This document shows, piece after piece, positions 3,907 to 28,100 of a stretch of DNA of 64,000 bases. Under the pieces are notes generated by a model. That model was not told the origin of the DNA, did no database searches, and saw only the letters and a program-made list of their open reading frames with translations. Position 1 is the first letter of the stretch; every line of letters begins with the position of its first letter. Location of the stretch: assembly GCA_964386865.1 (NCBI GenBank), contig CAYLUN010000011.1, positions 12,058 through 76,057 of the forward strand, in the 5' to 3' direction. The position numbers were made by a program, and so were the translations under genes. Source of the stretch: an uncultured Lentisphaeraceae bacterium (GTDB lineage: Bacteria; Verrucomicrobiota; Kiritimatiellia; RFP12; UBA1067).

Positions 3907-3960
3907 GCGGCCTAGAAATGGGCGATTCTCTGGCGAGCGTCCACGCGAGCCGTATCGCTA

Positions 3961-4089
3961 CAGCAATTCTAAATTTGACCCGCCGCGCGCTGTGAGAAGG
4001 CTCTCACGAGCCCACAAACGGAAACGCCTCGCTTTCGCACGTTTGTAGTGGCGCCGTGAGGCGCTTTCTAGTCAAATTCAGAATTGCTG
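3961..4089. repeat. Structured intergenic element: 19-bp inverted repeat (1 mismatch) enclosing three internal hairpins, between convergent genes
   Basis: CAGCAATTCTAAATTTGAC (3961-3979) pairs with GTCAAATTCAGAATTGCTG (4071-4089). Internal stems are GTGAGA/TCTCAC, ACAAACG/CGTTTGT and GCGCC/GGCGC. Confidence 0.45.
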
Positions 4090-4213
4090 GTGTCGCAGGG
4101 CCATGCCGGCCGCACATCAGGTAAAACCGATTTCGCGTGTCGGCGGGCTCGTCGCGCCCGACGTACTGTGCGCGGGCCGTCCGTCCGATCGCCAACCTCC
4201 GGGTGCCCGATTC

Positions 4214-13200: not shown

Positions 13201-13534
13201 GGCGCGCGCTGTCGTCGGCCGCGACGATGAAGGTGTAGAGCTCGGAGAACGCCGGCTCGATCTGGCCAGACCACACAACGGAGAAGGTGTCGCCGCTGGT
13301 CAGGGCGGTGCCGGAGGGGATGGACGTGCCCCAGTCGAAGTTCACGGTTGCGTCGACGCGCGTGGTCTTCAGCGTTCCGAAGGTCGCGGTGTCGTAGTAC
13401 TGCCCAGTCAGGCCGCTCGCGGCGTGAAGGCGCGGCGCGGCAAGCAGGCACGCAGCAGCAAGCAGGAGTCGCGTGCAGCATACGAGCGCCGCGCACGTGG
13501 GGCGCGTCACAAATCGGTCGGATAACACTCTCAT
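4214..13534 (-). CDS. Giant (about 3100 aa) secreted surface/adhesin-like protein: 2x PA14, heparinase II/III-like domain, cadherin-like, LamG, long array of autotransporter-associated beta-strand (PATR) repeats
   Basis: ORF track 4214..13918. The signal peptide begins at internal Met (MRVLSDRF...LLAAPRLHAASG), which corresponds to the ATG at 13534. PA14 motifs are present (GLTGQYYDTATF..., SGSYTFAVSGDD). A heparinase II/III-like region is present (HACAIGYDWFYHYW, NNWNMVCNGG). LamG is present (NWTISGWFKR...VWHHVAVV...LYLNGA). Dozens of repeats follow of the form TLSGTNTYSGxT...GTL.L. Confidence 0.85.
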   Translation of the reverse strand: MRVLSDRFVTRPTCAALVCCTRLLLAAACLLAAPRLHAASGLTGQYYDTATFGTLKTTRVDATVNFDWGTSIPSGTALTSGDTFSVVWSGQIEPAFSELYTFIVAADDSARLWVNDQLVALRTFYTSQEFRGQVALHAGQRVNIRLELVEQSGSARAKLEWSCASRAREVIPAERLFSARVEKAGGALLKEHWAGISGGAITSLTANANYPSKPSGREFITTFECLAQSWTNAYGTRVTGYIVPPESGSYTFAVSGDDVAQLYLSADSTTNNKALIASVTNATSFRVWDAQPSQQSAPRTLTQGQRYYVELLHKESTGSDHWSVGWMKPGDAAFSVVPGSALVQPGLTNAQPSEAALLNTLAQGHPRLFATTERFARLRDSWQSAAASQPKTWAQSAISGANTILTQDPVTYTQDVRDTILDQSRTAKDRLYKLGVAWQLTGDSQYAERAWEELSAVAAFPDWHPAHFLDTAEMTHACAIGYDWFYHYWTADRRAVIRGAIITNGLNAGLSQYTANVGWSQSSGNNWNMVCNGGLSMGALALGTESESLVENILNRAINSTRPVWKHFTTDNGAWYEGPGYWGYTTEYGIRMLAALEWALGSDFGIGATVDLSETGLAPIFALGPSGKIFNYADASAGGASRGPVYQWFARRYGQPLYAWWENQGSGGALDALWWDGQAASLTDLDTQPDMAFHGESGTAFQPQEMVTLRGTWSGSRTTFIGCKGGEMGASHGNLDAGTFVLDALGKRWFHDLGGDNYALPGYFSDTPSTGIDRWDYYRMRPEGQNTLTINPSANADMVLNAVAPLVAYASEPGGSGSFAIHDLTPVYSGMTRVWRGTRLLGARNEMLLQDEIQASTGKTVWWFAHYAYPATTVEIEPGGTSAMMTQGSDRLWCKILSGGGTFLITNAVPLATSPNPTNQNANTGFKKLAIKLAGVTNTTLAVWFVPLASGESAPAAPPALTALSAWNLAAANDAPVAADGNAFGDLAGYVDVDLRGYATDDATPPEHLRFTVSGAVNGTVALLADGHTARFTPTPGFTGVPLFSFAATDAGPDTRTLLVYDFEPPDATATNAVADASGLGRDGTLDAVGTGAATLQADTPAAFARDGRSLDLAENGGANAARLSRVVASNELNFSTGNWTISGWFKRRDSANEDMVWHLNNGDGYGTNEELYLVADGASSLSLQHFPGPDVNIVTNAAPGVWHHVAVVRSGTTMRLYLNGALAGEDASYSLSLNQTYPLIFGGHTDTNAAYAPRWLDGRLDDLAVHKAALTATEIAALASGLTARHLGGLTATGTITLASAPSTYVWTNAAAGATLPWSTASSWSGNATPTASRGATLQFFTAKTLAGGAVTSRNDSAGDFTLNALSLAGTASSAATVTLTGGPLAFQNNGLTAPSLSLDATAGSGLTYLLAMPVTLSADTTVDGAGTATFRIGGPVSGPGGLVKAGNKTLTLSGTNTYSGDTVIQEGTLQIGADGATGTLGAGPVENDGQLRFDRTGTLAVPNAISGAGSLYVDCPKNGGTVVLSGTNTFTGGVTVNSGALRITGSAALGDGEKQISLYNGTAGAPQLRLDGSSTPIDLPAAITYRTSHADGAIINEAGDNTLRGDITLTGGGGDTKITSSAGTLTLTGTLGPNTTSRTLQLAGTGNGAIFGAITNGGVNLLSASKSDAGRWLLAGSNTYSGATSLNAGTLALGHPFALGRGGLVYGNNNGACTLASGSTLDLGGQADVTEILTVRGSGVGGAGALVNTAAEPASLAGGAVSVVTVTSGGTHSAAPSVSFSGPGSGASAVATLGLTAASFTLSPGTTVYSAAPSVSLSGGGGSGAAVTATLTNGVLSGITITSAGTGYSSAPALAFSGGTILTPGVAPSGVGNATNFTVSGLQLTSSGSGYTAAPSVSFGSGAGTLATAHLSSMALGANTVVGGSGDIQIGAPVSGSYALTKVGAGLLALAGTNTYSGATTVSNGTLALLSNLAGNLTVATGTLAPSGAPSIAGSLAVHAGGRLSVRIDGPAAGTQYDTLAVAGAVTLAGALDLQAGTGLPSASAFTLINSTGAGAVSGTFTNKPNNSAFVEDGYRWRITYAGGTGNDVVLALASLPVLSDVTNLTVAANTSTGPIPFTVGDAETDAAALTLSAASSNATLMPTNRILFGGSGAERTVTLTPASNQTGTATVTLTVSDGIDTASDSFVLSVVASSVWTNTAAGAALPWTQGASWLAGTPAFSHTNGAVEFLPGQALEPGTLTATNNNAGTFQLAILRLAGTGPASGAAAVALVGQPLAFGNGSVAPALRLDAEAGPDGLTYTLANAATLVTTVSVEGDGSAAFLLSGPLQGGGGLAKSGAASLSLTGANTYGGGLALASGAGTTYATLSASQSGLGTGPVAIGPGATLQLDNVSTVAGLVAKTNAFSGTGTLRLNFSSGATARATALPGATGFAGIVQLAGAGATGDKWDAGGVLAPAATVQIDAGTTLMLSNAAASFAGVSVRGSGNAEGRGALRLATASATLSAPLTLLADTTLAGDAAGATFTGPIAGTAGTGATQTLAQGTAASAAGCTISGALADGPNGGRLALAQTRGTLTLSGASTYSGATTVSGGTLLLGATDALPVSGAVTLGTTAGAGALALGAFSQTLATVLVASTNAALTNLVSVAPGQTLALTGLGGLTVGTDSGTNSTTRCRIFGGGSLLVTNAAALVTVGKAQSTQNYYNACWLDLAGLACVSFGTPDAPLSELRVGFGQTTSGQLTLSDTSNAVASTAVQIGHSSGSNGGTSTVVLGAGANVIAANTVNIGLSKSSGTLKFASQAAGSPGTLTLIGRTRPAADLTLGAKTATGTSATPVGTLDLRGHLATVVAGTLILGKEDNNTSVTNYNGGATGNLSFDGGTFTASNLLMAAKSGIRTGAATATLTVSGGVFTVLSGGSFSLASQSGGGSATGTLNVNGGTFACNADIRDLGSNSLSTINLNGGTLDMTGHVIGTATQRIDVLNARAGTLMNLGQFNNGASLVKTGVGTLVLAGTNAYTGTTVASNGVLRLAGPAVLPPAANVSILSGASVDLAYVGTQTVHTLTVNGNQKLEGVYGASRLSPYLTGAGFLRTQWPPSPRTLLLLR

Positions 13535-13898
13535 ATTTTGCAATCCTGTCGCAGGCCCTAAGCAGCAGCACACCCCGTCAACGCATACGTTACACCACGC
13601 GCGCGCGCGGCGTCCAGCGAAACAGCGATTCTCACCAGGGCCTAAATGCCAGAGACGGACTGAAGGCAGGCCTCCCCGCGTTTCATTCCGTGCTCGTAGT
13701 CCGGGCTTCGGCCCGCTTCTTCCGGAATCGGGCTGGCCAGAATGAGAATGGCGGCCCGCGAAGCCCTCGCGGCTCCAGCAGGTCGGCGCCACGAAACGCG
13801 GTGCGCCCGGGTGTTTCCTGCGTGTTTCCGTTGACGTTAGGCGTGCGGAGAGATAAACTATTATCACCTGACAAGATTCTATTGGAAAGGAACGCAAG

Positions 13899-14432
13899 AT
13901 GAAAAACCTGTTCTTCATAGCTGCCTGTATCGTCGGCGGTCTTCTGTCCGGCTGTGTGGTGTCCGATCCGTGGGCTCCGCAGTATACGAGTCCCGTTGTG
14001 GTGGATCCGACTCCGACTTATGTCACGCCGGCACCGCGCGCGCCGAAACCGATTGTGGTGGATCCGGTGCCGTTCATCGTTCCGCCGGTTGATCTCCGCC
14101 CGGGAAGGCCTGCCGATCCGATTCGTATTACGCCAAACCCGCACGGAACACCCCACTTTAACCCCGGCCGGGGCCAGCATGGGATTCCCCAGCATCAACC
14201 GTCGCCTCAGCTCCAGCATCAGCCCTCGCACCAGCCTGGGCATCAGCCCTCGCATCAGCCCTCGCATCAGCCTGGCCAGCAGCTCCAGAAGCAGCCTGGG
14301 CAGCAGATCCAGAAGCAGCCTGGGCAGCAGATCCAGAAGCAGCCTGGGCAGCAGCAACAGCAGCAGCAGCCTGGGCAGCAGCAAAAGCCTAAGCAGGAGC
14401 AGCAACTTCAGACGCAGCCGAAGCACCCCTGA
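13899..14432 (+). CDS. Pro/Gln-rich tandem-repeat lipoprotein, hypothetical
   Basis: RBS GGAAAGGA precedes the ATG. Lipobox LLSGC is present. The C-terminal half is made of HQPS/HQPG and QKQPGQQI peptide repeats, encoded by near-perfect nucleotide tandem repeats at about 14190-14400. Confidence 0.7.
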   Translation: MKNLFFIAACIVGGLLSGCVVSDPWAPQYTSPVVVDPTPTYVTPAPRAPKPIVVDPVPFIVPPVDLRPGRPADPIRITPNPHGTPHFNPGRGQHGIPQHQPSPQLQHQPSHQPGHQPSHQPSHQPGQQLQKQPGQQIQKQPGQQIQKQPGQQQQQQQPGQQQKPKQEQQLQTQPKHP

Positions 14433-14631
14433 TTCGTGCGAGGAGGGGGCGGTGGGCTGAAGCGCAGAGCCGCGACTGCATGCAGGCTCGTGACGAAACG
14501 CGCGTCGTCGTGCCGTCCGGTCATGCCGGCGGCGCGACGAGTTCGTTTGCGAGCGGGGGGCTGGGCGGCCGTGAAGAAGCGCGTTCTGAGGAATGTGAGC
14601 CAGTGACACTAAACCGTTGAATGGGGGGGAT

Positions 14632-16179
14632 ATGAAACAGTCCGCGTCTGCATCCGTCGTGTGTGCCCTGCTTCTCTGTTCAGCCGCTGTCCGTGCGGAC
14701 GTCATGCTTCCGCCGGCCATTTCCGACCACATGGTGATCCAGAGCGGGGCTGCCGCGCCGATCTGGGGCAAGGCTTCGCCGGGCGAGGCGGTAACGGTCT
14801 GCATCGCCGGACAGACGAAGACGGCGACCGCCGACGCGCAGGGCCAGTGGAAGGTGACGCTCGACCCGCTGAAAGTCGCCGAGGGGCTCACGCTCACCGT
14901 GAAGGGCAAGAACGCGATTGAGGTTCAGGACGTGCTGGTCGGCGAGGTGTGGCTGGGCTCCGGCCAGTCGAACATGGACATGCACGTCAACAGCTACACC
15001 AACAACGACCCCGTTCTGGCTCAGGCGGCCGCGACGAGCTATCCGAAGCTACGCCTGCTCCACAAGGGCCGCAAGGGGTGGGAAGAGGCTACGCCCGCTA
15101 ACAACGCCCAGTTCTCGGCGCTGCTCTTCGCGTTCGGGTTCCGCCTCCAGCAGGAGCTGGGCGTGCCGGTCGGCATCATGGTCGGCGCGGTGGGCGGCAC
15201 GCCGTCAGGCTACTGGCTGACGGAGGAGATGTACCGCGGCGACGCGGCCTGCCGCGCGCAGGCGGAGGAGTTCGCGAAGACGTATGATTTTGCCGCGGCT
15301 CAGAAGAAGTACGAGGAGCAGCTCGCCGCGTGGAAGGTGGAGGCGGGGAAGGCGAAGCAGGAGAAGGTCAAGGTGCCTCGGCAGCCCGCCGCTCCGGCGA
15401 AGGCGGGCGAGTCCTCCGGCCGCATCGGCAACCTCTACGAGGCCCACGTGCGACCCTACGCGCCCTACGCGATCCGCGGCGTGCTGTGGGACCAGGGCGA
15501 GAGCGGCACGGCCATCACGGGCGTGGACCAGTTCAACGTCATGGGCGCACTGATCAAGGGGTGGCGCAAGGAGTGGGGCCAGGAGTTTCCCTTCCTCTAT
15601 GTGCAGAAGACCAGCGGCGGCGGCGCGGCGTGGGATCCGGCAGACCCGGTGACGAAGAACGCGAGCACGTTCAGCCCGCTGCCCGCTCAGGTGCCCGGAG
15701 CGGGCGACGGCCTCTACCGCGAACTGCACATCAAGATCCAGCAGCATCCGAAGACCGCGATGGTCACAAGCACCGACCTCGGCAGCGGCGTGCACCCCAT
15801 CAGCAAGTCGGGGTACGGCGCGCGCGCCGTGCGCGTGGCGCTGGGCTTCGTCTACGGCAAGCCGGTCGAGATCAGCGGCCCGGCCTACGCGTCGCACGCG
15901 GTGGAGGGAAACAAGGTGCGCGTCAAGTTCGCGCATGTCGGCCAAGGCCTCGCGGCCCGCCACAGCGACAAGCTGCAGGGCTTCATGGTCGCGGGCGCGG
16001 ACAAGAAGTTCGTGTGGGCCGACGCGGCGATCGACGGCGACAGCGTGGTCGTGTCGAGCGCGGCGGTGCCGAGCCCGGTGGCGGTGCGCTACGCGTGGTC
16101 CGGCAACGCGCCGTGGGCGAACCTGTTCAACAAAGACGGCCTGCCCGCGCTCACCTTCCGCACCGACGACTGGAGGTGA
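14632..16179 (+). CDS. Sialate O-acetylesterase (SASA/DUF303 carbohydrate esterase family)
   Basis: Signal peptide present. The GDS-type motif VWLGSGQSNM is characteristic of SASA-family esterases. The ATG at 14632 follows a GGGGGGA RBS; the track start at 14617 is TTG. Confidence 0.8.
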   Translation: MKQSASASVVCALLLCSAAVRADVMLPPAISDHMVIQSGAAAPIWGKASPGEAVTVCIAGQTKTATADAQGQWKVTLDPLKVAEGLTLTVKGKNAIEVQDVLVGEVWLGSGQSNMDMHVNSYTNNDPVLAQAAATSYPKLRLLHKGRKGWEEATPANNAQFSALLFAFGFRLQQELGVPVGIMVGAVGGTPSGYWLTEEMYRGDAACRAQAEEFAKTYDFAAAQKKYEEQLAAWKVEAGKAKQEKVKVPRQPAAPAKAGESSGRIGNLYEAHVRPYAPYAIRGVLWDQGESGTAITGVDQFNVMGALIKGWRKEWGQEFPFLYVQKTSGGGAAWDPADPVTKNASTFSPLPAQVPGAGDGLYRELHIKIQQHPKTAMVTSTDLGSGVHPISKSGYGARAVRVALGFVYGKPVEISGPAYASHAVEGNKVRVKFAHVGQGLAARHSDKLQGFMVAGADKKFVWADAAIDGDSVVVSSAAVPSPVAVRYAWSGNAPWANLFNKDGLPALTFRTDDWR

Positions 16180-16185: not shown

Positions 16186-17076
16186 TTGGCTGACGGAAGT
16201 CCGAGAGCAGCTAGGCTTCTGGCCGCGTTAGCGGTTGCGTTCGCTTGTCCGCCCGTGCGTGAGGCCTGCGCGGATGATTTGACGTGCGGCGCGCAGCGCT
16301 CCGGGAAAGTTCCCGCGGAGGTTCGGATCGCCTACGGTCTGGGCGAGTTCTACCAGAAGCACGCGGCGGTCGGCGAGCTGTCGGTGGTGGCCTCCGCGCG
16401 GGTGTCGGACTTCGCGCTGCACGAGGCGGCGTGGATTCTGGGACGCGTGATGGACGGGCGGGGGGACTTGCTGCGGACGATGGCCAGCAACGGCTGCCTG
16501 GTGGCTGTGATGGCGTGGAGCGAGTACACGACCGACCTGCCGCAGCAGCGGGGCCTGAAGCCGAAGGCGTACTGGGACAAGCGTGCGCGCGGGCTGGGCG
16601 GGGCGCTGGTCAGTTGCGGCGAAGAGAACCTGCTGGCCTATCCAGGCGACCCCTATCCGGACGAGAACATTCTGATCCACGAGTTTGCGCACGCGGTCTA
16701 TGAGCAGGGGCTCCGCGCGGCCGATCCGACGTTCGACGCCCGGCTGAAGGCTGCCTACGCGCAGGCGATGGAGCGTGGCCTGTGGAAGGGCACGTATTCG
16801 GCGGAGAACCCCTCCGAGTATTGGGCTGCGGGGTCGCAGGACTGGTTCGGCCGCAAGCGGGAGAACGACGCCGCGACCAACCACGTCAACACCCGCGAGG
16901 AGCTGAAGGCGTACGACCCGTCGCTCGCCGCGCTGTGCAAGGAGGTGTACGGCGACCGCGCGTGGCGTTACCGCGCGCCTGCGGAGCGTGCGCCCGAGGG
17001 ACGCGCGCATCTGGTCGGCAATGACTCCGCGAAAGCGCCGCGCTTCCGCTGGCCCGAGGAGGGGCAAGATGAATAG
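16186..17076 (+). CDS. Secreted putative zinc metallopeptidase (HEXXH motif)
   Basis: TTG start 6 nt after GGAGGTGAG. Signal peptide AARLLAALAVAFA. HEFAH zincin motif (ILIHEFAHAVYEQG). Confidence 0.55.
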   Translation: MADGSPRAARLLAALAVAFACPPVREACADDLTCGAQRSGKVPAEVRIAYGLGEFYQKHAAVGELSVVASARVSDFALHEAAWILGRVMDGRGDLLRTMASNGCLVAVMAWSEYTTDLPQQRGLKPKAYWDKRARGLGGALVSCGEENLLAYPGDPYPDENILIHEFAHAVYEQGLRAADPTFDARLKAAYAQAMERGLWKGTYSAENPSEYWAAGSQDWFGRKRENDAATNHVNTREELKAYDPSLAALCKEVYGDRAWRYRAPAERAPEGRAHLVGNDSAKAPRFRWPEEGQDE

Positions 17077-18103
17077 ACTGCTGTTTGTGAGCATGGGCGT
17101 CATCTGCACGCTGGCAGCGGTAGAGACGCCCGGGCGCGAGGTTACCTTTCTCTCGACCTCGGATTGCCATTACCGCGAGCCGGATCATCCGCTCGGCTGT
17201 CATAACGACCAGAACCGCTTCACGATTGAGGCGATGAATAGCATCACGAATGTGGCGTGGCCTGCGTCGCTGGGCGGCGGGCTGGTCGCCGCGCCGCGCG
17301 GCGTGGTGGTGCTGGGCGACTGCATCGACGACGGCGACAAGAAGGTCGGCGGGCGGGTGTTCAGCCGGGAGCAGTACGACCTGTTTGTCGGCGATTTCGG
17401 TCTGGTCGGCAACGACGGCTTGCTGAAGTTCCCCGTCTTCGAAGGGTGGGGCAACCACGACGGGCCGCCCGAGGGAAAAGAGAAGTCGGGCTTCAGTTAT
17501 CAGGCGAACCTCAAGAAGCGCAACGTGATCCGCAAGGGCAAGGGGCTGATCTCCAACCTCGCGAACAACGGTTTGCACTATTCGTGGGAGTGGGACGACG
17601 TCCATTTCGTGCACCTGAATTTTTATCCGGCCGACTCGCAGCGGGCCGGTGTAAAGTACTCGCCGGTGTGGCATGACCCGCAGGCTGCCCTGAGCTTCCT
17701 GAAGAGCGATCTGGCTGAAAAGGTAGGTGCGAGCGGCCGGCCGGTCGTGCTGCTCAGCCACTGTGGGTTTGACACCGACTGGTGGACGGCCGAGGACTGG
17801 AAGGCGCTCTACGAGGCGGCGCGGCCTTACCGGGTGGTGCTGTATCTCTACGGGCATACGGGCACGGGGCTCGTTCAGTGGGCGCCTGCGGGCGAGCCGG
17901 CGAAGTGGACGTGCATCAACGACGGCCAGACCGAAGCCGGTTTCTTTGTGATCCAGATACAGGGCGACCGCCTCCGCGCCGCCTATCGCCGCAAGGCGGG
18001 GTCGACCGTCGTGAAAGATCCCGGCGGTAAGGCGCGCCGCGAGTGGGCGGGAAAATGGGAGTGGCAACACGCGATGGAGTGGCCGTTGCGGGCAGGTGAG
18101 TAG
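17069..18103 (+). CDS. Calcineurin-like metallophosphoesterase
   Basis: The internal ATG at 17069 is preceded by GAGGGG and overlaps the upstream stop. Motifs GDCIDDGD, GNHD and GHTG are present. Confidence 0.75.
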   Translation: MNRLLFVSMGVICTLAAVETPGREVTFLSTSDCHYREPDHPLGCHNDQNRFTIEAMNSITNVAWPASLGGGLVAAPRGVVVLGDCIDDGDKKVGGRVFSREQYDLFVGDFGLVGNDGLLKFPVFEGWGNHDGPPEGKEKSGFSYQANLKKRNVIRKGKGLISNLANNGLHYSWEWDDVHFVHLNFYPADSQRAGVKYSPVWHDPQAALSFLKSDLAEKVGASGRPVVLLSHCGFDTDWWTAEDWKALYEAARPYRVVLYLYGHTGTGLVQWAPAGEPAKWTCINDGQTEAGFFVIQIQGDRLRAAYRRKAGSTVVKDPGGKARREWAGKWEWQHAMEWPLRAGE

Positions 18104-18117: not shown

Positions 18118-19017
18118 ATGACGGGTACGATTTTCGACATCAAGCGGTTTTCGATGCATGACGGCCCCGGAATACGCACCACGGTTTTCCTGAAGGGCTG
18201 TCCGCTGTCGTGCGTCTGGTGCCACAATCCGGAGAGTCAGGCTGTTGCGCCTAGCCTGCTGTATCGGCCGGAGCTGTGCCTGCGGTGCGGGCGGTGCGTG
18301 GCGCAGTGCCCGCAGGGCGCGTGGGTGGCGGGTGAGGGTGAAGCGCCCGTGCGGGACGGGGCGCGCTGCCACGCCTGCGGCGGGTGTGCGGAGGCTTGCC
18401 CGGCGGAGGCGATCACCCGCGTGGGGCGCGAGATCGGTGCCGACGCGCTCGTCGAGGTTTTGGCCAAGGACCGGCTGTTCTTTGACGAGTCCGACGGCGG
18501 AGTGACGTTTTCGGGAGGCGAGCCGCTGGGCCAGCCGGCGTTCTTGAAAGCGGTGCTGGAGCGTTGCCGACAGATGGGTCTGCACAGCGCGGTGGATACG
18601 TGCGGGTTCGCGTCGCGGCAGACGATGCGAGAGGTGGCCGAGCGCGCCGACCTGCTGCTGTACGACCTGAAGCTGCTCGACCCGGAGGCACACCGCCGCT
18701 ACACGGGCGTTTCGAACGAGGACATCCTCGCGAATTTGCGCATGCTGGTCGCGGATGGCCAGCGCGTGGAGATCCGCATGCCGATGATCCCGGGCATCAC
18801 GGATACGGCGGAGAATGTGACGGCTGCTGCGGCGTTTGTCGCGTCTCTGCCGTCGCCGCCGCGCGTGCGGCTGCTGGGTCACCACCACGCGGCGATGTCG
18901 AAGTACCGGCGCTTCGGCATGGAGCACCAGCTGGGCGAGATGGAAGATCCCTCGCCCGACCATATGGCGGAACTCGCGGCGCGCATGCGGGGCCTGGGCG
19001 TTGATGCGTTTGTGTAG
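18118..19017 (+). CDS. Glycyl-radical enzyme activating enzyme (radical SAM, with extra ferredoxin-like clusters)
   Basis: N-terminal CPLSCVWCHN (CxxxCxxC) is present. Two additional clusters follow: CLRCGRCVAQCP and CHACGGCAEACP. RBS AGGAGA. Confidence 0.9.
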   Translation: MTGTIFDIKRFSMHDGPGIRTTVFLKGCPLSCVWCHNPESQAVAPSLLYRPELCLRCGRCVAQCPQGAWVAGEGEAPVRDGARCHACGGCAEACPAEAITRVGREIGADALVEVLAKDRLFFDESDGGVTFSGGEPLGQPAFLKAVLERCRQMGLHSAVDTCGFASRQTMREVAERADLLLYDLKLLDPEAHRRYTGVSNEDILANLRMLVADGQRVEIRMPMIPGITDTAENVTAAAAFVASLPSPPRVRLLGHHHAAMSKYRRFGMEHQLGEMEDPSPDHMAELAARMRGLGVDAFV

Positions 19018-19153
19018 GATTGCGGCGGCGATGGGCGCGGCATCCGCTTGACGGACAAGCCTCGACACTGCTGGGGCGGGTCAGTCAGCACGCGGGTAGC
19101 GCGTCGGGCGTCTTTAAGCGGAACCCGTTCACGGGGCCAAGAAGAGGCGCACA

Positions 19154-19179
19154 TTTCTCACACCTCCGGAGGTGTGAGA
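19154..19179. promoter_or_regulatory. Perfect 26-bp palindrome TTCTCACACCTCCGGAGGTGTGAGAA (copy 1), about 143 bp upstream of the GRE start
   Basis: Exact palindrome read directly from the sequence. An identical copy lies at 24962-24987, upstream of the 25115 gene. Confidence 0.5.
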
Positions 19180-19321
19180 ATGGGATACATCACGTCATGT
19201 GCAGAGGGAGTGGGGGCAACGGCCCTCCTGGTGTATTTCTCTCTTTCCGGCTTCGGCCGGGCGTTTACAAGCGGCGGCGAAACGTGTACTCTAGTGCTCC
19301 AGTTCAGAAAGAAGGTGTGTG

Positions 19322-21682
19322 ATGAATGATCGGGTTGCCAAGCTGCGCCAGGCCAGTTTCGAGGCCGAGCCGACTATTTCAACGGAGCGCGCCGTGTGGA
19401 TCACGCGCTTCTACCGCGAGCACATCGGTAAGCACTCCGTGCCGGTCATGCGGGCCAAGGCCTTCGAATATCTCTATGCGAACCAGAATCTGTACATAGG
19501 CGGCGGCGAGCTGATCGTCGGCGAGCGCGGGCCGAAGCCCAAGGCGGTCTCCACCTATCCTGAGCTGACCTGCCACAGCGAAGAGGATCTGCGCATCCTG
19601 GGCAGCCGTAAGAAGACGCACTATGGAACCACGGAGGAGGACGTGCGCGTCTACCGCGAGGAGGTCATCCCCTTCTGGCGCGGCCGCACCATGCGCGAGC
19701 GGCTCTTCGCGGGGCTCTCGGACGCGTGGAAGGCGGCTTACGAGGCCGGGCTCTTCACCGAGTTCATGGAGCAGCGAGCCCCGGGCCACACCACCTTCGA
19801 CGGCAAGTTCTACCAGAAGGGCCTGCTGGGCTTCAAGGCCGATATCGCCGCCGCGCGCGCCGCGCTCGACTTCCTGAGTGACCCCGAGGCCGCGCCCAAG
19901 CGCGAGGAGCTGACGGCCATGGCCATCGCCTGCGACGCGGTGATGACCTTCGCGCGGCGCCACGCCGAGCTGGCGGAGCGGATGGCCGCGGCCGAGCCCT
20001 GCCCGCAGCGTAAGGCCGAGCTGCTGCAGATCGCGGCGACCTGCCGCCGCGTGCCGGCCGAGGCCCCGCGCGATTTCCGCGAGGCGCTGCAGATGTACTG
20101 GTTCATGCACCTGGGCACCATCACGGAGCTGAATGGCTGGGACGCCATGAACCCCGGCCACCTCGACCGCTACTTCTATCCGTTCTATCAGCGCGACCTC
20201 GAGGCGGGCGCGCTGACGCGCGAGCAGGCCAAGGAGCTGCTGGAGTGCTTCTGGATCAAGTTCAACAACCACCCGGCTCCGCCCAAGGTGGGCGTGACGG
20301 CCGAGGAGAGCGGCACCTACAACGACTTCACCAACATCAACCTCGGCGGCATCCTGCCCGACGGCGGCGACGGCGTGAACGAGCTGTCCTACCTGATGCT
20401 CGAGGTCATCGACGAGATCCACCTGCTGCAGCCGCAGGCCAACCTCCAGCTCAGCCGCAAGAACCCGGATCGCTTCCTCAAAGCCGCCTGCGAGGTGATC
20501 CGCAAGGGCTACGGCTACCCCTCGGTCTTCAACGCCGACGGCGTGGTCGAGCAGATGGTGCGCTGCGGCAAGCGGATCGAGGACGCGCGCGAGGGTGGCA
20601 CCAGCGGCTGCGTCGAGACGGGCGCCTTCGGCAAAGAGGCGTACGTGCTGACCGGCTACCTCAACACGCCCAAAATCTTGGAGCTTGCGCTGAACAACGG
20701 GCGCGACCCGCGCACCGGCAAGCAACTGGGGCCCGAGACGGGCGACCCGCGGCAGTTCGCGTCGCTGGACGACGTCTTCGCGGCGTTTGAGCGCCAGCTG
20801 CGCCATGTCGTGGATCTGAAGGTGGCGGGCAACGCCTTCATCGAGAGGATGTACGCCGCAGAGATGCCCGCCGTCTTCCTCTCCGTGCTGATCGACGACT
20901 GCATCAAGACCGGCAAGGACTACAACGCGGGCGGCGCGCGCTACAACACGAGCTACATCCAGTGCGTGGGCATCGGCACCATCACGGACAGCCTGTCCGC
21001 CATCGGAAAGCATGTGTTTGAGACGCATGCGCTCACGATGGGGCAGATGGCAGACGCTCTGGTGGCTGATTTCGCCGGCAGCGAGCCGCTGCGCCTGACG
21101 CTTTGGAACAAGACGCCGCGCTACGGCAACGACGACGACGCGGCCGACGGGCTCATGAAGCGGGTTTTCGAGGCGCTCTACTCGGCCATCGACGGCCGCC
21201 CCAACCTGCGCGGGGGCCAGTACCATGTCGACATGCTGCCGACCACTTGCCACATCTACTTCGGCTCGGTCCTCGGCGCGACGCCGGACGGCCGCAAGGC
21301 GGGCACGCCGGTTTCGGAGGGCATTTCGCCGGTGCAGGGCGCGGATCGCCAGGGGCCCACGGCCGTGGTCAAGTCAGCCGCCAAGATAGATCAGCTCCGC
21401 ACGGGCGGGACGCTGCTGAATATGAAGTTCCTGCCCGGCACGCTGCGCGGGCAGGAGGGCATCGACAAGCTGACTAGCCTGGTGCGCAGCTACTTCCGCA
21501 TGGACGGCCACCACATCCAGTTCAACGTCGTGGACGCGGACACCCTGCGCGAGGCGCAGCGGCGACCGCAGGAGTACCGCGACCTGATCGTGCGCGTGGC
21601 GGGCTACAGCGACTACTTCTGCGACCTGGGTCGCGAGCTGCAGGACGAGATCATCTCCCGCACCGCGCAGAGCGAGTTCTGA
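19322..21682 (+). CDS. Glycyl radical enzyme, pyruvate formate-lyase family, 1,2-eliminase/dehydratase class (glycerol/propanediol/hydroxyproline dehydratase-, CutC- or IslA-like)
   Basis: C-terminal glycyl radical motif VRVAGYSDYF. Cys-loop GTSGCVETG carries the Glu two residues after Cys, as in the eliminase GREs. Length 786 aa. The ATG at 19322 follows GAAGG. Confidence 0.9.
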   Translation: MNDRVAKLRQASFEAEPTISTERAVWITRFYREHIGKHSVPVMRAKAFEYLYANQNLYIGGGELIVGERGPKPKAVSTYPELTCHSEEDLRILGSRKKTHYGTTEEDVRVYREEVIPFWRGRTMRERLFAGLSDAWKAAYEAGLFTEFMEQRAPGHTTFDGKFYQKGLLGFKADIAAARAALDFLSDPEAAPKREELTAMAIACDAVMTFARRHAELAERMAAAEPCPQRKAELLQIAATCRRVPAEAPRDFREALQMYWFMHLGTITELNGWDAMNPGHLDRYFYPFYQRDLEAGALTREQAKELLECFWIKFNNHPAPPKVGVTAEESGTYNDFTNINLGGILPDGGDGVNELSYLMLEVIDEIHLLQPQANLQLSRKNPDRFLKAACEVIRKGYGYPSVFNADGVVEQMVRCGKRIEDAREGGTSGCVETGAFGKEAYVLTGYLNTPKILELALNNGRDPRTGKQLGPETGDPRQFASLDDVFAAFERQLRHVVDLKVAGNAFIERMYAAEMPAVFLSVLIDDCIKTGKDYNAGGARYNTSYIQCVGIGTITDSLSAIGKHVFETHALTMGQMADALVADFAGSEPLRLTLWNKTPRYGNDDDAADGLMKRVFEALYSAIDGRPNLRGGQYHVDMLPTTCHIYFGSVLGATPDGRKAGTPVSEGISPVQGADRQGPTAVVKSAAKIDQLRTGGTLLNMKFLPGTLRGQEGIDKLTSLVRSYFRMDGHHIQFNVVDADTLREAQRRPQEYRDLIVRVAGYSDYFCDLGRELQDEIISRTAQSEF

Positions 21683-21700
21683 GGCGCGGCTGCGTGGGGG

Positions 21701-21866
21701 CGAACGCTGAACGGCAAAGTGAAGGCCAGGCTGGTCAGGCTCGCGCTGGGGGGCGAGGCTGCGCCGAGCCGCGGACCGAACGCTGAACGCCGAACGCCGA
21801 ACGGCGAAGTGATGTCCAGGCTGGTCAGGCTCGCGCTGGGGGGCGAGGCTGCGCCGAGCCGCGGAC
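21701..21866. repeat. Tandem duplication, about 90-bp unit x2, immediately downstream of the GRE stop
   Basis: Unit 21701-21776 and unit 21791-21866 share an identical 50-bp core CCAGGCTGGTCAGGCTCGCGCTGGGGGGCGAGGCTGCGCCGAGCCGCGGA. A partial third head copy GAACGCTGAACGC lies between them. Confidence 0.7.
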
Positions 21867-22432
21867 GGCGGAGACGCCGTCCATCTCCGCCTTTGCCTAA
21901 ATGGTGGCTGTCCATCAGCAGGCGGCCCGCACGGAGACGGGCCCTCCAACGCGAGAATAGCCGTTTCGAATCACCTCGCGCTGGAGGGACGACCTCCGTG
22001 ACGTCCTTGCGCTCCAGGCCAAATACATTTCGGCGGTGGTATGAGGGCGCACCGGCGTTCCGTTGTCCCGTCGCCAGATAACGTAAGGATAGCCGACCTG
22101 TAGCTCCGCCGCTTCTGTCGGCGGAGAGGAGGCGTGTTTCCGGCGACACCGGAACTACAGAGCCAGCGGCCCATGGTCTAAGGCTAGCGTAGCGAGGGTT
22201 CTCGCGCCATTTGATTCACAGACGCTTGATACATGAATAAGTGCGAGCACTTGGCGAATAGCGTGGGTGAAGTGCTGTGCTGACAAGAATTTAGACGCGT
22301 CGGCCCTGTAGCGAGGGCTTGACCCCGTACAGCTCCTCCGTGTACGCTTCTAAATATTGGTATCCTGCGCCAGTTCATCTGTCGGGCCGGTGGATTGCGT
22401 CTGGACGCCTATAGTCGTTGGCGGAAGAAGAA

Positions 22433-22837
22433 ATGATGGAAATCCGGATCAAAGGGAATGACCTTCCACAGACAGTCTTGGAGGAGATCGGCCGCGTGGC
22501 CGATCACGCAGGGCTTCAAGTGGACGAGGTCCTGCATGATCCCGTCACGGGAACAGTGACCATTCCGTTTAACCGTTTTCCCATCATAGGGAAGTCAGTG
22601 CTCGGTATCACGCGCCACACCGTTGCACCGGTCAGGAGCAGATTGACGATTCGCAAAGTAACTGATTGCCAGATTAATCAAACGCCAGAGCCCGGACTGA
22701 GAGTGACCATCATCTTCGGTCTGAAGGTCGAGAAGAACACGGTCTTCATGTGCTCTGCGGAGGAAGATAAAGGGCAGCAAATGTTCTCAATGACGTGCCG
22801 AGTCGCGGAACTCGACATCGAAATCAAAGATGAATGA
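22433..22837 (+). CDS. Hypothetical small protein (134 aa), atypically low GC, translationally coupled to the downstream MFS permease
   Basis: The ORF has roughly 50% GC against 68% for the window. It ends in ATGA, overlapping the start of the next gene. No recognisable motifs. The track start at 22418 is TTG; the ATG at 22433 is preferred. Confidence 0.5.
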   Translation: MMEIRIKGNDLPQTVLEEIGRVADHAGLQVDEVLHDPVTGTVTIPFNRFPIIGKSVLGITRHTVAPVRSRLTIRKVTDCQINQTPEPGLRVTIIFGLKVEKNTVFMCSAEEDKGQQMFSMTCRVAELDIEIKDE

Positions 22838-24303
22838 CAGCGCCAACCACCGTAGGCAGGGTACGCTGCGCGCCCCTGCTGCGGGACGTTCGCATGCCGA
22901 TTTGTTCTGAGAGACGGTTGAAGTCAAAAGACGAGGAAGGGCGGTTCTTGGATCGTGAGAACAATAGGCGCTGGTGGCACCCGCGCCATAACCTGCTGGC
23001 GACCCGGCGCGGGCGTCTGACGGCCTTTTTCCTGCTCTACGTGACCGAGGGCATTCCCAACGGTTTCGCGCTGGTGGCGATGGTGACGCAGATGAGGCGG
23101 TTGGGTGTCAGCCCCGAGAACATCGGGCTGTTCTCGGCGTCCTTTACGCTGCCATGGGCCTTCAAGTGGGCGATGGGCCCTTTTGTGGACCTGTTCTACA
23201 TCGACCGGTGGGGGCGGCGGCGGGTCTGGATCGTCGCGGCGCAAGTGCTGATGTGCCTGACGCTGATGGCCGCGCTGGCCGTTGACCTGAAAACGCAGAT
23301 CCAGACGCTCACGGCCCTGATCATTTTGCACAACGTGTTCGCGGCGACGCAGGACGTGGCCATCGACGCGCTGGCCTGCGGCACGCTGCCTGAGCATGAG
23401 CGTGGCACGGCCAACGGACTGATGTTCGGGGGCGCCTATCTGGGGCAGGCCGTGGGCGGAGCGGGCGTCTTGTGCTTGTTGGATTGGGGCGTGCCGCTAG
23501 CCTCCACCTACTTCTTCGTTACAGGGGCGATCCTGTCGGTCACGGTGCTCGTCAGTTTGCGTCTGCGCGAACCGCTACACGGTCACGCCTCTTATGCGGA
23601 AGGGCCGCGCTGGCGGGCGTTGGCGCAGGCTGTTCACGGGTATTGGAGAGACGCGCTGCGGGCTTTCTTTGGGCGGCGCGCGGCTGCCGTGGGCCTGCTT
23701 GTCGCGCTGTTCCCGCTGGGCCCCTATGCGCTGTCGCTGGCGCTTTGCAACAACCTGGCCGTCGAGATGGGGATGTCGGACGGACTGATCGGACGGCTGA
23801 TGCTGCTCGGAACCATACTGGCCGCCGTGTTCTGTGTGGTGGGCGGGTACGTGTCCGACCGGCTCGGGCGGCGTCAGACGCTGTCGTTCGCCGCAGTCGG
23901 AATGGCGCTCACGACGGTCGCGCTGGCGTGGGGCCTGCACCGGCAGGGCTGGCTGTTTCCGGTGGCGATGGATGCGGCGGTCAAGCCGGTGGCTTCGGCG
24001 TTCCTGCTGCATCTGTACATCGGAGCCGGGCTGGCGTATTCGGTCTTCCAGGGGCTGATGTACGGATCACGGACGGCGCTGTTCATGGACGTCTGCAACC
24101 CTGCGGTGGCGGCCACGCAATTCACGGCCTACATGGCCTTGCTGAACGTGGTCATCAGCTACTCGACGTACTGGCAGTGCCGGTTTGTTTCGACGCTGGG
24201 CTATCCGCTGACGCTCGTGCTAGACTCCTGTTTAGGCCTCGTGTGCCTGGCACTGTTGCCGTTCATGACGAAGCATACTGAGCATACGGTCGGGGGGGAT
24301 TAA
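22834..24303 (+). CDS. MFS transporter, AmpG/PAT-family-like permease
   Basis: 12 predicted TM segments. AmpG-like motifs are present (ILHNVFAATQDVAIDALA). The true start may be at an internal Met. Confidence 0.7.
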   Translation: MTAPTTVGRVRCAPLLRDVRMPICSERRLKSKDEEGRFLDRENNRRWWHPRHNLLATRRGRLTAFFLLYVTEGIPNGFALVAMVTQMRRLGVSPENIGLFSASFTLPWAFKWAMGPFVDLFYIDRWGRRRVWIVAAQVLMCLTLMAALAVDLKTQIQTLTALIILHNVFAATQDVAIDALACGTLPEHERGTANGLMFGGAYLGQAVGGAGVLCLLDWGVPLASTYFFVTGAILSVTVLVSLRLREPLHGHASYAEGPRWRALAQAVHGYWRDALRAFFGRRAAAVGLLVALFPLGPYALSLALCNNLAVEMGMSDGLIGRLMLLGTILAAVFCVVGGYVSDRLGRRQTLSFAAVGMALTTVALAWGLHRQGWLFPVAMDAAVKPVASAFLLHLYIGAGLAYSVFQGLMYGSRTALFMDVCNPAVAATQFTAYMALLNVVISYSTYWQCRFVSTLGYPLTLVLDSCLGLVCLALLPFMTKHTEHTVGGD

Positions 24304-24307: not shown

Positions 24308-24913
24308 ATGGCTGAGTCGTTCCTGTTTGTGGTTCGGGTGTGGCTGAAGATCCTGTTCATCTTCACGCCGTTTCTCATCCTATCGATCTTTCTCGGCATG
24401 ACGCGCGAGTTCGACACGGCTCGGCGCCGCGCGTTCGCGCTGCGGGCGACCGTCGCCGTGGCGGTCATCTGCTTCGTGGTCTACTTCTTCGGCTCGGTCA
24501 TCTTCGCGCTCTTCGGCATCACGCTTGACGCGTTCCGTATCGGCGCGGGCGCGCTGCTCTTCCTGTCGTCGATCGGCCTGGTGCAGGGAAAGGCTCCGCC
24601 GACGCCCAACGGACAGGAGGACCTTGTGGTCGTGCCGTTCGCCATGCCGATCATCGTCGGGCCGGCCGTGATGGGCGTGCTGTTCGTGCTCGGCGCCGAC
24701 GTGGCAAACCTGAAGGAGCGGCTGCTGGGCGCGCTCGCGCTCGGGCTGGCGGTCGCCTGTCTCGGCGCGCTTCTGCTGGTGGCGACGCAGGTGGAGCGCT
24801 GGGTCGGCAAGGACAAGTTGGAGATCATCAGCAAGGTGACCGGGCTGATCCTCGCCGCGCTGGCGGCCCAGATGATCTTCACCGGGGCGCGACACTTCCT
24901 CGTCGGCCCGTGA
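24308..24913 (+). CDS. MarC-family (UPF0056) integral membrane protein
   Basis: Six TM helices. The sequence is typical of the MarC/NAAT family (FTPFLILSIFLGMT...). Confidence 0.75.
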   Translation: MAESFLFVVRVWLKILFIFTPFLILSIFLGMTREFDTARRRAFALRATVAVAVICFVVYFFGSVIFALFGITLDAFRIGAGALLFLSSIGLVQGKAPPTPNGQEDLVVVPFAMPIIVGPAVMGVLFVLGADVANLKERLLGALALGLAVACLGALLLVATQVERWVGKDKLEIISKVTGLILAALAAQMIFTGARHFLVGP

Positions 24914-24961: not shown

Positions 24962-24987
24962 TTCTCACACCTCCGGAGGTGTGAGAA
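24962..24987. promoter_or_regulatory. Perfect 26-bp palindrome TTCTCACACCTCCGGAGGTGTGAGAA (copy 2), about 128 bp upstream of the 25115 start
   Basis: Identical to copy 1 at 19154-19179. It lies in the non-coding leader, which the track mis-annotates as an N-terminal extension of ORF 24938. Confidence 0.5.
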
Positions 24988-25114: not shown

Positions 25115-28100
25115 ATGGTTGAAGGAAGGCGACGCGACGGGCGGCGGGTTGTGGCTGCGACCGGGATGTGGCTGGCGCTATCCGGCGCCGGGCTGGCCCT
25201 GGAGAAAGAGGTCTCGCTGGTGACCGGGCAGCCGGTCGGCGAGCTGGCGGTGGCGGGACGGCTGTCCATCGACCTCCACGCGGTGTTCATGGTGTCGCGC
25301 ACGTACGACAAGGACACGGTGCTCAACTGGTACAGCTGCGGCTACTCAGGCGGCGGGCAAGGCGGCACGAAGGTGGGAGGCGCGTTCGGGGACTTCGGCT
25401 TTCAGGTGCCCTTCAAGGAGCGCGATGCGCGCTATCCGCACGCGGTGACCGTGGACAAGGTGCCCGTGGTGCGGTTCGACGGCAACGACGTGCTCAAGGG
25501 CAACATCGTCGCTGAAGCCGACGTGGCCGGGCGGCAGGACTGGGCGCTGGAGGTCTGGGTGCGCGCCGCCGGGCCGGACGCCGGCACGATTCTCGGGTGG
25601 CAGTCGAAGGATGGCCGCTCGGCCTCGGCGCCGCTGGCCTTCCCGAAGCGGGCGGCCTCAGGGGCGTGGCGCCACCTGGTGCTGAACTGCACGGCCGAGA
25701 GCGAGGCTTGCTACCTCGACGGCGCCAAGGTCTCAAGCGCCAGGCGCGAGACGGTCATCGGCGAGGGGCAGCTGATGGTGCTCGGCGGAGCGGCGGCGGA
25801 CAGGCCCTCGTTCAAGGGCGACCTGGCCGCCGTGCGCCTGCACGACCGGGCGATGACGGAGGCGGAGATCGCGCACAACTTCGCGGGCGGCGCAATGTTG
25901 GGTACGGAGATGCACAGCTGGTGGCGGACGGATCCGGGCACGTGGTGGAGCCAGGAGTCCGAGCACTTCCGGCACTGCGTCGGCCTCGCGGAGATGAAGA
26001 AGTGGGGCGAGCGGCAGCGCAAGGAGTTCGACGCGCGCGTTCCGCAGATGTTCGACATGGCTGAGCTGATCTACCGCACCTACTCGGAGCGGCTGGCGCT
26101 GAGGAGCTCGGTCGTGAGCCGGCGTCCGGAGAAGCGGGGCGACGGCATCAAGTACAAAACGCCGATCCAGCCGGCGGACGGCAGCTGGATGGGCGTGGAC
26201 GACGACTTCGGCTGGGCCTGCCAAGGGGCGGGCCACATCAACCCGCACGAGCTGGCTCACGGGTGGCAGGCGATGACTGGCGGCATGGCCGGTAACTGGT
26301 GGGAGGCGCACGCCAATTTCCCACAGACTTACAACGGCATCTACCAGACCGTCCCGATCATCCTGTCCGAGTGCTCGGCCTTTCCCGCCAGCGGCCGCAC
26401 CTACTACCACGACCGGCTGATGTTCGAGCACCTGGCCCAGACACCAGAGTACGGGCCGATGTTCATCTCCAAGCTCTGGTACGACGGCCCGACTGAAGCG
26501 GACAAAGATCCGTACCCGTGGGCGACGTTCGCGCGTATCAACCCGCTACCGGAGCGGACGCTGGCCGACGAGTACGCGCGCATGGCGATGCGGAACGTGA
26601 CGTGGGACTACACGACCTTCAAAGAGCGCCAGCCCGGCGAGCAGGGCAACACGCCGTACGGCAATGACGGCGCTGTCAGGGAGGAGAACCTCTATGCGGC
26701 GGCCGCCGCGAGCATGCGGGCGGAGATCGAGAGGTACTCGCGGATCCTGCTCGAGCCGATCGCCGGTGAGCCGGGCTGGTGGCGCGTGCCGAAGGAGCAG
26801 GCGCCCCAGCAGCTCGGCTGGAACATCTGCCCGCTGGCGTGCACGGCGGGCCGCGTGTCGGCTGCGCTCTCAGGGTACGTCAATCCGGCGCGCGGGCCGG
26901 ACTGGCGGGCCGCGTTCGTCGGCGTGGACGCAGGAGGAAAGCCGCGTTACGGGGAGATCTTTGCACCGGGCACGCTCAGTCGGTTTGAGGTGACGCGCGA
27001 CATCAAGGAGCTCTATCTCGTTGTCTGCGCCACGCCCACCAACATGCTCAACATCGACATGGTGGGCGACTTTCGCTCATTCGAGCAGGAGCCGTTCCCT
27101 TACCGAGTCAGGCTCGAGGGGTGCGCGCCGCTGGACCTGCTGACGCCGCAAAAGCCCACGGTGGCCGGCGCGCAGCACGCGAACGGCGGCGGCTTCGTCG
27201 AGAAGACGGCGCAGGTCGAGGCGAGCGCCTACGTAGGCCCGCACGCGCAGGTGCTGGGCCACTCCAAGGTGCTCGGAAGCGCGCGGGTTGAGGATTTCGC
27301 GGTCGTTCAGGACGCTACGGTGAAAGACCGCGCGGTGGTCTCGGGGCATGCGCGAGTCGCGGAAGCATCCACCGTGGCAGAGGACGCCAAGGTTCGCGAC
27401 TATGCGGTGGTAAAGGGGCAGACGACGGTGCGGGGGCGGGCCAAGATTCTCGAGCACGGCGCGATCTTTACCCATAAGACGTGCAAGGATCAGGTGGTGG
27501 TCAAAGGCGTGGCGTCCGTCTACGGCGGCAATCAGAGCGGCAGCGCCATGCTCGACGGGTACTATGCCAAAGGCAACGAAATCACCAAGGGCAAGTGGTT
27601 CACCTGGAGCTGGGGCCAGGGCAAGAACGTGGGCGAGGCGGATGAGGAGTTCGGCGGGCTCTACCTGCGGATGGACTTCGAGCGGCCACACCCCTGGATG
27701 GCGCCCGACGACTTCGGCGTCACGTGGGGGTGGCTGGCGGGCGGGGCGACGTGCGCCACCGAGCCTTCGCTGGTCAGCTACCGGAGCGCCCTGCTGCGCG
27801 CCGAGGAGGCGGCGCCGGCGCTGGAGAGCGGCCACCTCGACGACAAGCCGGTCGCGGAGCTGTTGGCCGGCTATCTGCGGCCGCCGGAGACGGGCGACTA
27901 CGTGTTCTGGATCTCGGCGGACGACGAGGGCGAATTCTGGCTGGGCCAGGCGGGCGGCACGACGGCCGACACGCTGCTGTGCGGCAACCCGTTCTGGGCG
28001 GGCCACAAGGAATTCACGCGCTTTCCGTCGCAGAAGTCCTCTCCGGTGCGCCTCGAGAAGGGGAGGTTCTACCCGCTCAAGGCGCTGCACGCCAACAGCC

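Follow-up and report, generated by a model that had tools for sequence, protein, structure and literature searches.

A probable trans-4-hydroxy-L-proline dehydratase and its activase beside a duplicated palindrome in a 64,000-nucleotide bacterial contig segment

The window analyzed here is a stretch of 64,000 nucleotides of contig CAYLUN010000011.1 (assembly GCA_964386865.1, uncultured Lentisphaeraceae bacterium), in which two genes of the forward strand encode a radical-SAM activase of 299 amino acids (positions 18118–19017) and a glycyl radical enzyme of 786 amino acids (19322–21682, starting with ATG), and we consider it very probable that this pair is a trans-4-hydroxy-L-proline dehydratase (HypD) with its dedicated activase. 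Both genes were recovered from the list of open reading frames (ORFs) at the coordinates given by an earlier note on this DNA, and the two motifs which that note had read in the larger protein were located as well (RVAGYS at residues 758–763, GCVE at residues 429–432). The Pfam domains of this protein are PFL-like and Gly_radical. An alternative GTG start at 19319 would give 787 amino acids; the ATG is favored by the N-termini of homologs and by the Shine-Dalgarno spacing, and the position of the ribosome-binding site of hypD, AGAAGGTG, agrees with it. The GC content at third codon positions (GC3) of the pair, 0.84 and 0.92, is typical for the genome (82–95% in the genes of the window), and the GC content along the window varies between 61% and 73%.

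The assignment follows from a curated model, a gapless structure match and a conserved pocket taken together. Among the exact-function models of NCBIfam, the protein passes NF043068 (trans-4-hydroxy-L-proline dehydratase) with 1227 bits against a cut-off of 1100, its residues 2–784 of 786 being aligned to profile positions 1–783 of 784. The runners-up are the models of sulfopropanediol dehydratase (NF048011 and NF048009; 564 and 504 bits, cut-off 1000), formate C-acetyltransferase (NF007437; 499 bits) and the choline TMA-lyase CutC (TIGR04394; 498 bits, cut-off 1050); neither the sulfopropanediol models nor that of CutC is passed, and all of these models stay at or below about half of their own cut-offs. 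The model of pyruvate formate-lyase (TIGR01255) is likewise not passed, with 124 bits against 994, so that the enzyme belongs with the dehydratases and eliminases, as the earlier note had proposed, and is not a pyruvate formate-lyase. The best solved structure is HypD of Clostridioides difficile (6VXC/6VXE; 1035 bits in a single gapless alignment of residues 3–784), and the second-best reaches 530 bits. The GCVE Cys loop and the overall fold are common to this group of enzymes, structures of CutC, glycerol dehydratase, propanediol dehydratase and IslA are matched with 430–530 bits, and genes for glycan degradation are numerous in the organism; the protein might thus be thought a glycyl radical eliminase for some other small molecule, such as propanediol derived from fucose or rhamnose, glycerol, choline, isethionate or sulfopropanediol. 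We regard this as very improbable, given the low scores of precisely those models, a pocket that carries the HypD-specific Asp274, Asp335 and Ser330 in place of Phe and other residues, and the lack of microcompartment, cut, pdu, isethionate or other sulfonate genes among the window genes scanned, a lack already stated in the earlier note.

Residue numbers in the window protein are those of C. difficile HypD minus 4, and all 15 of the listed HypD active-site residues are identical between the two (C. difficile numbering in brackets): Gly761 (G765) of the radical site and Cys430 (C434), Val431 (V435) and Glu432 (E436) of the Cys loop, the acid-base residues His156 (H160), Asp274 (D278) and Asp335 (D339), the carboxylate-binding Ser330 (S334), Tyr446 (Y450) and Thr641 (T645), the ring-packing Phe336 (F340), Phe148 (F152) and Trp273 (W277), and the charge-balancing Arg152 (R156) and Lys322 (K326). 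Fourteen of these, all but V435, were checked across 195 family sequences and are invariant. In the C. difficile enzyme, His160, Asp278 and Asp339 are essential by mutagenesis, Asp278 and Asp339 are conserved in HypD and not in other eliminases, and Ser334 stands where glycerol dehydratase, CutC, propanediol dehydratase and IslA carry Phe; Ser334, Tyr450 and Thr645 bind the carboxylate of the substrate, Phe340, Phe152 and Trp277 pack its ring, and Arg156 and Lys326 balance charge (PMC7077986). Alignment to characterized glycyl radical enzymes and inspection of the pocket, which the earlier note had suggested as a check, therefore returns a pocket of the HypD type. That note had called the substrate unknown, which no longer holds in view of the passed model, the gapless alignment and the retention of every residue that binds or processes hydroxyproline; its list of candidates did include hydroxyproline, whereas the diols from fucose or rhamnose and the sulfonated products that it also named are disfavored by models and pocket. 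It had further proposed to judge the enzyme by whether the Cys-loop Glu is positioned as general base, which is misleading because the proposed acid/base of HypD is Asp278 and not the CXE Glu, the latter being essential but not a classical general base (PMC7077986).

A related reading would have the enzyme act on a relative of hydroxyproline, namely trans-4-hydroxy-D-proline (as a C–N lyase like HplG), another isomer, or a hydroxyproline-containing or glycosylated species released from extensin. HplG, the trans-4-hydroxy-D-proline C–N lyase (7VUA), is a homologous glycyl radical enzyme matched with 416 bits, the identity to the tested HypD enzymes is about 60%, and the arabinofuranosidases and peptidases beside the gene in its clade, described below, make unusual hydroxyproline derivatives plausibly available. 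The HypD score is, however, 2.5 times that of HplG, the contacts to carboxylate, amine and hydroxyl are identical to those of the C. difficile enzyme, so that a peptide or glycan would have no obvious space, and specificity for the trans-4-L isomer of hydroxyproline has been reported for the characterized HypD (PMC6219649); we judge such a substrate very improbable. The window protein is best described as an ordinary, intact ortholog of the known enzyme, one to which annotation pipelines now in use would give the right name; relatives that are 86% and 74–78% identical already bear the name trans-4-hydroxy-L-proline dehydratase at NCBI or JGI.

The activase has Radical_SAM and ferredoxin-type cluster domains in Pfam, with the radical-SAM CX3CX2C motif at C28/C32/C35, a GGEPL motif, and two ferredoxin-type CX2CX2CX3C motifs at residues 54–64 and 84–94, and it passes the general model for activases of glycyl radical enzymes, TIGR02494, with 340 bits against a cut-off of 174. 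The steps of catalysis can be proposed by transfer from the characterized C. difficile enzyme (PMC7077986); what was observed directly here is the family membership and the conserved residues. The [4Fe-4S] cluster held by C28/C32/C35 would, with S-adenosylmethionine, generate a stable radical on Gly761 of HypD, which would be passed on to Cys430, and the resulting thiyl radical would take a hydrogen from C5 of the bound hydroxyproline. Ser330, Tyr446 and Thr641 would fix the ring through its carboxylate, Phe336, Phe148 and Trp273 would pack against it, and His156 and Glu432 would position its 4-hydroxyl. Asp274 is predicted to deprotonate the amine and to protonate the leaving 4-hydroxyl within a network of His156, Asp335 and Glu432; water would be eliminated, the hydrogen returned to C4, and delta1-pyrroline-5-carboxylate (P5C) released, a reaction that would work under anoxic conditions only. 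The HypD activity itself, the physiological source of the hydroxyproline and the regulation are predicted from sequence. The presence of a P5C dehydrogenase in the operon of one relative (L093; relatives' loci are given L numbers) suggests oxidation of P5C to glutamate, and suggests that hydroxyproline serves as a source of carbon and nitrogen rather than for a Stickland-type reduction.

Scanning one genome per species yielded at least 587 loci of the HypD family, and neighborhoods were counted in the best 80 of them. The activase lies directly upstream of hypD and co-oriented with it in about 68 of these 80, and in most of the remaining loci the contig ends too near the gene; the order with the activase first, highlighted in the earlier note, is therefore true of the window and the norm of the family rather than a distinctive feature. 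Only the activase–hypD pair is conserved across the whole family. Recurrent family-wide neighbors are M24 Xaa-Pro peptidases (11 loci), members of the proline-racemase family (8) and of the OCD/mu-crystallin family (7), besides oligopeptide ABC transporters and assorted regulators, and these fit a catabolism of proline and of hydroxyproline-containing peptides.

What sets the window apart is the spacer between the two genes, which at 304 nt (19018–19321) is unusually long for the family; relatives with 86–92% HypD identity have spacers of 94, 62, 64 and 3 bp. Alignment shows that approximately positions 19018–19263 are an insert specific to the window and absent from its closest relatives, whereas the last 55 bp or so have a conserved DNA counterpart in L087 (GCA_022704145.1), the closest retrievable relative, whose hypD is 87% identical in DNA and 92% in protein. 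The earlier note had described a leader of about 300 bp with a palindrome, which agrees with the 304 nt found and with the perfect 26-bp palindrome inside it, and had read a promoter there, TTTACA (19264–19269) and TACTCT (19287–19292) on the forward strand with 17 nt between them. L087 retains both hexamers and their 17-nt spacing although the letters of the spacing differ, which provides modest phylogenetic support for a candidate promoter; a generic sigma-70 scan does not list it, because the -10 hexamer matches only three of six consensus bases, so that the proposal stands in part. It is plausible that the activase, which begins 14 nt past the stop codon of an upstream metallophosphoesterase ORF, is transcribed with the genes upstream, and hypD from its own candidate promoter.

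The fold of the whole spacer is no better than that of shuffled sequences (z = -0.85), and a terminator-like hairpin at 19211–19240 is not significant (z = +0.3). No Rfam family is matched anywhere in the window when gathering thresholds are applied, a permissive scan of 18900–22900 returned chance-level matches only, and no riboswitch or known leader RNA was found. The window has no tRNA or tmRNA genes. A forward ORF of 49 codons (19180–19329), preceded at a distance of 8 nt by a GGAGG, has its first base on the final base of the palindrome and runs to ATGAATGA, where it overlaps the start of hypD in a layout that would permit translational coupling; it is probably non-coding, because its GC3 is about 61% by manual count against 82–95% in the genes of the window.

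Several observations weigh against the assignment of the pair as hydroxyproline dehydratase and activase. The best exact-function match of the activase, NF043069 (activase of hydroxyproline dehydratase), scores 339 bits, below its cut-off of 425, and, apparently split from hypD by the insert, the activase may lie in a different transcription unit, which is atypical for the family. The identity to the characterized clostridial enzymes is only about 60%, so that an altered stereo- or substrate preference is formally possible. Among the window genes scanned there is no proC and no aldehyde or P5C dehydrogenase that would consume P5C, and next to hypD neither an Xaa-Pro peptidase nor a recognized transporter of proline or hydroxyproline. 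A gene for P5C consumption beside hypD, proC in Clostridia, is common but does not define HypD.

The palindrome of the spacer, TTCTCACACCTCCGGAGGTGTGAGAA, occurs in two identical copies in the window, where none would be expected by chance: copy 1 (19155–19180) lies in the window-specific insert and ends 141 nt before the ATG of hypD, and copy 2 (24962–24987) lies 48 nt past the stop codon of a marC gene and 127 nt before the ATG, at 25115, of a gene for an Svx-like peptidase. The flanks of the two copies are unrelated, and the hairpin that each could form has a predicted energy of -18 kcal/mol (z = -4.3). None of 90 related hypD loci contains the palindrome, even with up to six mismatches allowed, and no comparable pairs were seen in ten close relatives scanned. 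When exact matches to the central 20 nt were sought in metagenome contigs, seven further sites came up in six contigs of 60–68% GC, all of them with a full palindrome of 26–28 bp between unrelated flanks and in mixed positions, most of them 0–150 nt upstream of a start, one between convergent and two between divergent genes. The palindrome is thus not a leader element particular to hypD. It may be an operator, bound by a lineage-specific regulator that would then link hypD with the Svx-like gene, or alternatively a hairpin repeated in the manner of REP elements.

One of the metagenome contigs (Ga0172375_10235074, L083) carries two copies, at 316–341 and 911–936, which bracket an ArsR/MarR-like gene for a protein of 185 amino acids with two winged-helix domains, the ATG of which abuts the first palindrome so that the GGAGG of its right arm is placed as a ribosome-binding site. 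This protein is a candidate for the cognate regulator, as a lead only; the window and all of the hypD loci lack a homolog. A second pair of identical palindromes, of 28 bp and unrelated to the first, was seen elsewhere in the window (GTGCGATTGCAAACTATTGCAATCGCAC at 44463–44490 and 45669–45696), the copies sharing an extension (GG...AGAATTCAGA). The former lies about 100 nt upstream of a reverse-strand ORF of 143 amino acids without family match (43934–44365), whereas the latter precedes an Rce1/CPBP-like gene (44768–45907) by about 65–90 nt, counted from the probable true start of that gene near 45604, and the two look like paired candidate operators of two adjacent genes.

Just past the stop codon of hypD, two direct copies of a 76-nt unit (21701–21776 and 21791–21866; 95% identical, 90 nt from start to start) open a variable gap of 1.15 kb (21683–22833). 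A single copy also follows hypD in L091, and we therefore regard the unit as a conserved 3' element that was duplicated in the window. Five relatives (L001, L089, L090, L093 and L096) have an M24 Xaa-Pro peptidase gene in the position of the gap; a remnant of it was sought in the gap of the window and none was found. The gap contains a forward ORF of 139 amino acids (22418–22837) in a stretch of lower GC content (61% against about 67%), which has no Pfam or NCBIfam match, and the equivalent gap of L091 holds an ORF of 71 amino acids that by eye resembles a HicB-type antitoxin and a membrane protein of 225 amino acids, so that the gap between hypD and the MFS gene is apparently a hot spot of accessory genes. 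The missing M24 gene, with repeats and a low-GC ORF in its place, and the outlying length of the 304-bp spacer could be taken to indicate that the pair is decaying or uncoupled, at a locus that is heading to inactivation. This is barely credible, as both ORFs are intact and of full length with all catalytic residues kept, their GC3 is typical for the genome, and the promoter-like motif and Shine-Dalgarno sequence before hypD are conserved with L087.

Downstream of the gap lie, all on the forward strand, an AmpG-like MFS transporter (22834–24303; MFS_1 98 bits, TIGR00901 125 bits and below cut-off), a small membrane transporter of the MarC/NAAT family (24308–24913; PF01914 129 bits, TIGR00427 108 bits with a cut-off of 99) and the Svx-like gene (25115–28753). 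The MFS protein, orthologs of which (50–80% identity) lie downstream of hypD in L001, L090, L091, L093 and L096, is a candidate importer of peptides or glycopeptides containing hydroxyproline, and the MarC/NAAT protein, with orthologs following hypD in L001, L018, L093 and L096, a candidate amino-acid transporter. The third gene encodes a predicted secreted Svx/AvrXca-like gluzincin metallopeptidase (DUF6055; PF19527 127 bits against 27) with LamG and PA14 domains, a HELAH motif at residues 378–382 and a downstream Glu397; it scores 168 bits with NF040510 (Svx/AvrXca; cut-off 625) and shows weak acyltransferase-like matches at residues 689–788. Homologs of it adjoin hypD in L001, L090 and L096.

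The closest clade comprises 13 loci, including the window, with HypD proteins 78–92% identical, and its members surround the pair with a recurring set of genes. The most complete string is that of L096 (80% HypD identity), where an Svx-like peptidase, DPP-IV, a GH51-like arabinofuranosidase, GH43, activase, hypD, M24, MFS and MarC are tightly packed on one strand. L093 (81%) has a P5C dehydrogenase (TIGR01236; 788 bits, cut-off 614) followed by activase, hypD, M24, MFS, MarC and GH127, and L001 (80%) has GH127 and an Svx-like gene and, further on, activase, hypD, M24, MFS and MarC. Shorter versions are AraC, activase, hypD, M24, MFS and Svx-like in L090 (86%) and GH127, AraC, GH43, activase, hypD and M24 in L089 (88%), and in L095 (78%) S28 and M24 peptidases and AraC lie beside the pair. 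The window has activase, hypD, MFS, MarC and the Svx-like gene, without M24. GH127 and GH43 are used by Bifidobacterium and Xanthomonas to strip arabinose from the hydroxyproline-linked arabinooligosaccharides of hydroxyproline-rich glycoproteins, and the Svx peptidases, which belong to the gluzincins, are predicted to cut extensins in their glycosylated form (PMC10815107).

Because relatives flank hypD with arabinofuranosidases, Svx-like and proline-specific peptidases and a P5C dehydrogenase, we tentatively propose, as a possibility on the doubtful side, that hypD is the terminal step of an undescribed anaerobic locus for the use of hydroxyproline-rich glycoproteins that carry arabinose, for example extensins of plants or algae, with the palindromes as shared operators. 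In such a pathway, the secreted Svx-like glycopeptidase with its lectin domains would cut the glycoprotein, arabinofuranosidases of the GH127, GH43 and GH51 types would remove the hydroxyproline-linked arabinose, and DPP-IV and M24 Xaa-Pro peptidases would free hydroxyproline, intermediates being moved by the MFS and MarC/NAAT transporters; HypD would then form P5C, and P5C dehydrogenase glutamate. The window would represent a reduced locus in which one regulator would control both hypD and the Svx-like gene by binding the identical palindromes that precede them by 141 and 127 nt.

Some observations call for caution about this glycoprotein locus. The genomes are rich in glycoside hydrolases, so that part of the adjacency may be chance; the GH127 protein of L093 best matches a model of aceric-acid hydrolase, below its cut-off, and the specificities of the GH127 and Svx-like proteins throughout the clade are putative; and two of the closest relatives have unrelated neighbors. 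In L087 the activase–hypD pair adjoins four reverse-strand genes (1930–8874) with DUF2397, DUF2398, an SMC-like ATPase and JetD_C/DUF2399, a set that we take to resemble a Wadjet-type defense system, which shows that the pair moves between unrelated contexts. Within the literature library searched, no paper linking hydroxyproline dehydratase with arabinofuranosidases was found, and in one review extensin figures only as a possible source of hydroxyproline in the diet.

The remaining neighbors are as the earlier note had described them, by weak family matches: upstream of the activase lie a SASA-like gene (14617–16179; 37 bits; the sialate O-acetylesterase of that note), a forward-strand gene for a HEFAH-motif protein of 296 amino acids without family match (16186–17076; its metalloprotease) and the Metallophos gene (16988–18103; 26 bits), and downstream the MFS and marC genes. 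The HEFAH protein, encoded in the run of co-oriented genes that includes the activase, has by eye a signal-peptide-like hydrophobic N-terminus, and searches returned no protein family or solved structure for it, the only match, to Peptidase_M90, being at chance level. Further upstream, a forward-strand gene for an HZS_alpha-domain protein (152–3022; 956 amino acids) and one for a protein of 233 amino acids with a weak cupin or D-lyxose-isomerase-like match (3205–3906) form a conserved pair (75–81% identity) that lies immediately upstream of activase–hypD in L092 and a few genes upstream in L089. In the window the two pairs are about 14 kb apart, with a reverse-strand gene between them (4214–13918) for a surface protein of 3234 amino acids with PA14, GLEYA, LamG and heparinase II/III-like domains and PATR autotransporter repeats, a homolog of which is convergent with hypD in L092. 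The genes rnpA (RNase P protein) and yidC are adjacent on the forward strand at 36455–39046, a pair that often marks the region of the chromosomal origin; the GC skew climbs steadily across the window without a switch.

As for the host, L087 has genes of the Amuc_1100 and Amuc_1102 families, the other close HypD matches are labeled Akkermansia, Verrucomicrobia or PVC, and the window encodes GH92, GH43, DUF2961 and giant LamG/PA14 surface proteins, so that the glycan-degrading PVC bacterium of the earlier note is a reasonable description, though short of proof. HypD was discovered in 2017, has been structurally characterized, and has been reported from many phyla. The enzyme itself adds nothing new, and what is modestly fresh is the 26-bp palindrome in its two copies and, at the level of the clade, the association with genes for glycoprotein degradation. 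Earlier work on HypD centered on hydroxyproline derived from collagen and on clostridial Stickland fermentation; if the tentative glycoprotein pathway holds, it would point to anaerobic mineralization of hydroxyproline-rich cell-wall glycoproteins of plants or algae by probable Verrucomicrobiota, and would supply a set of genes with which a little-known side of carbon and nitrogen cycling under anoxia could be tested.

Three known systems can be compared with the locus. The hypBA1–hypBA2–hypAA genes of Bifidobacterium longum and Xanthomonas (GH127, GH121 and GH43, acting on hydroxyproline-linked beta-L-arabinooligosaccharides) and the gluzincin peptidase Svx of Pectobacterium resemble the clade in that close relatives have GH127, GH43 and Svx-like genes beside hypD; those systems act on sugars or protein backbone only, and no hydroxyproline-catabolizing enzyme is known in them. 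The window has no GH127, GH121 or GH43 gene adjacent to hypD, and keeps the Svx-like gene. With CutC, the B12-independent glycerol dehydratase, propanediol dehydratase, IslA and the sulfopropanediol dehydratases, the enzyme shares the fold, the RVxG motif, the GCVE loop and the need for a radical-SAM activase that has auxiliary clusters, and it differs from them in its pocket of HypD residues and in the lack of microcompartment genes among those scanned in the window. HypD and its activase in C. difficile differ from the window pair, which is about 60% identical to clostridial homologs, in their adjacent proC and Stickland context, whereas the window pair has a host of high GC content (about 66–73%), probably one of the Verrucomicrobiota, the 304-bp spacer, and transporters and a secreted Svx-like peptidase encoded nearby. 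The two enzymes are nevertheless of the same length class and align without a gap over 782 residues, their Gly loop, CXE Cys loop, and catalytic and substrate-binding residues are identical, and in both the activase lies immediately upstream.

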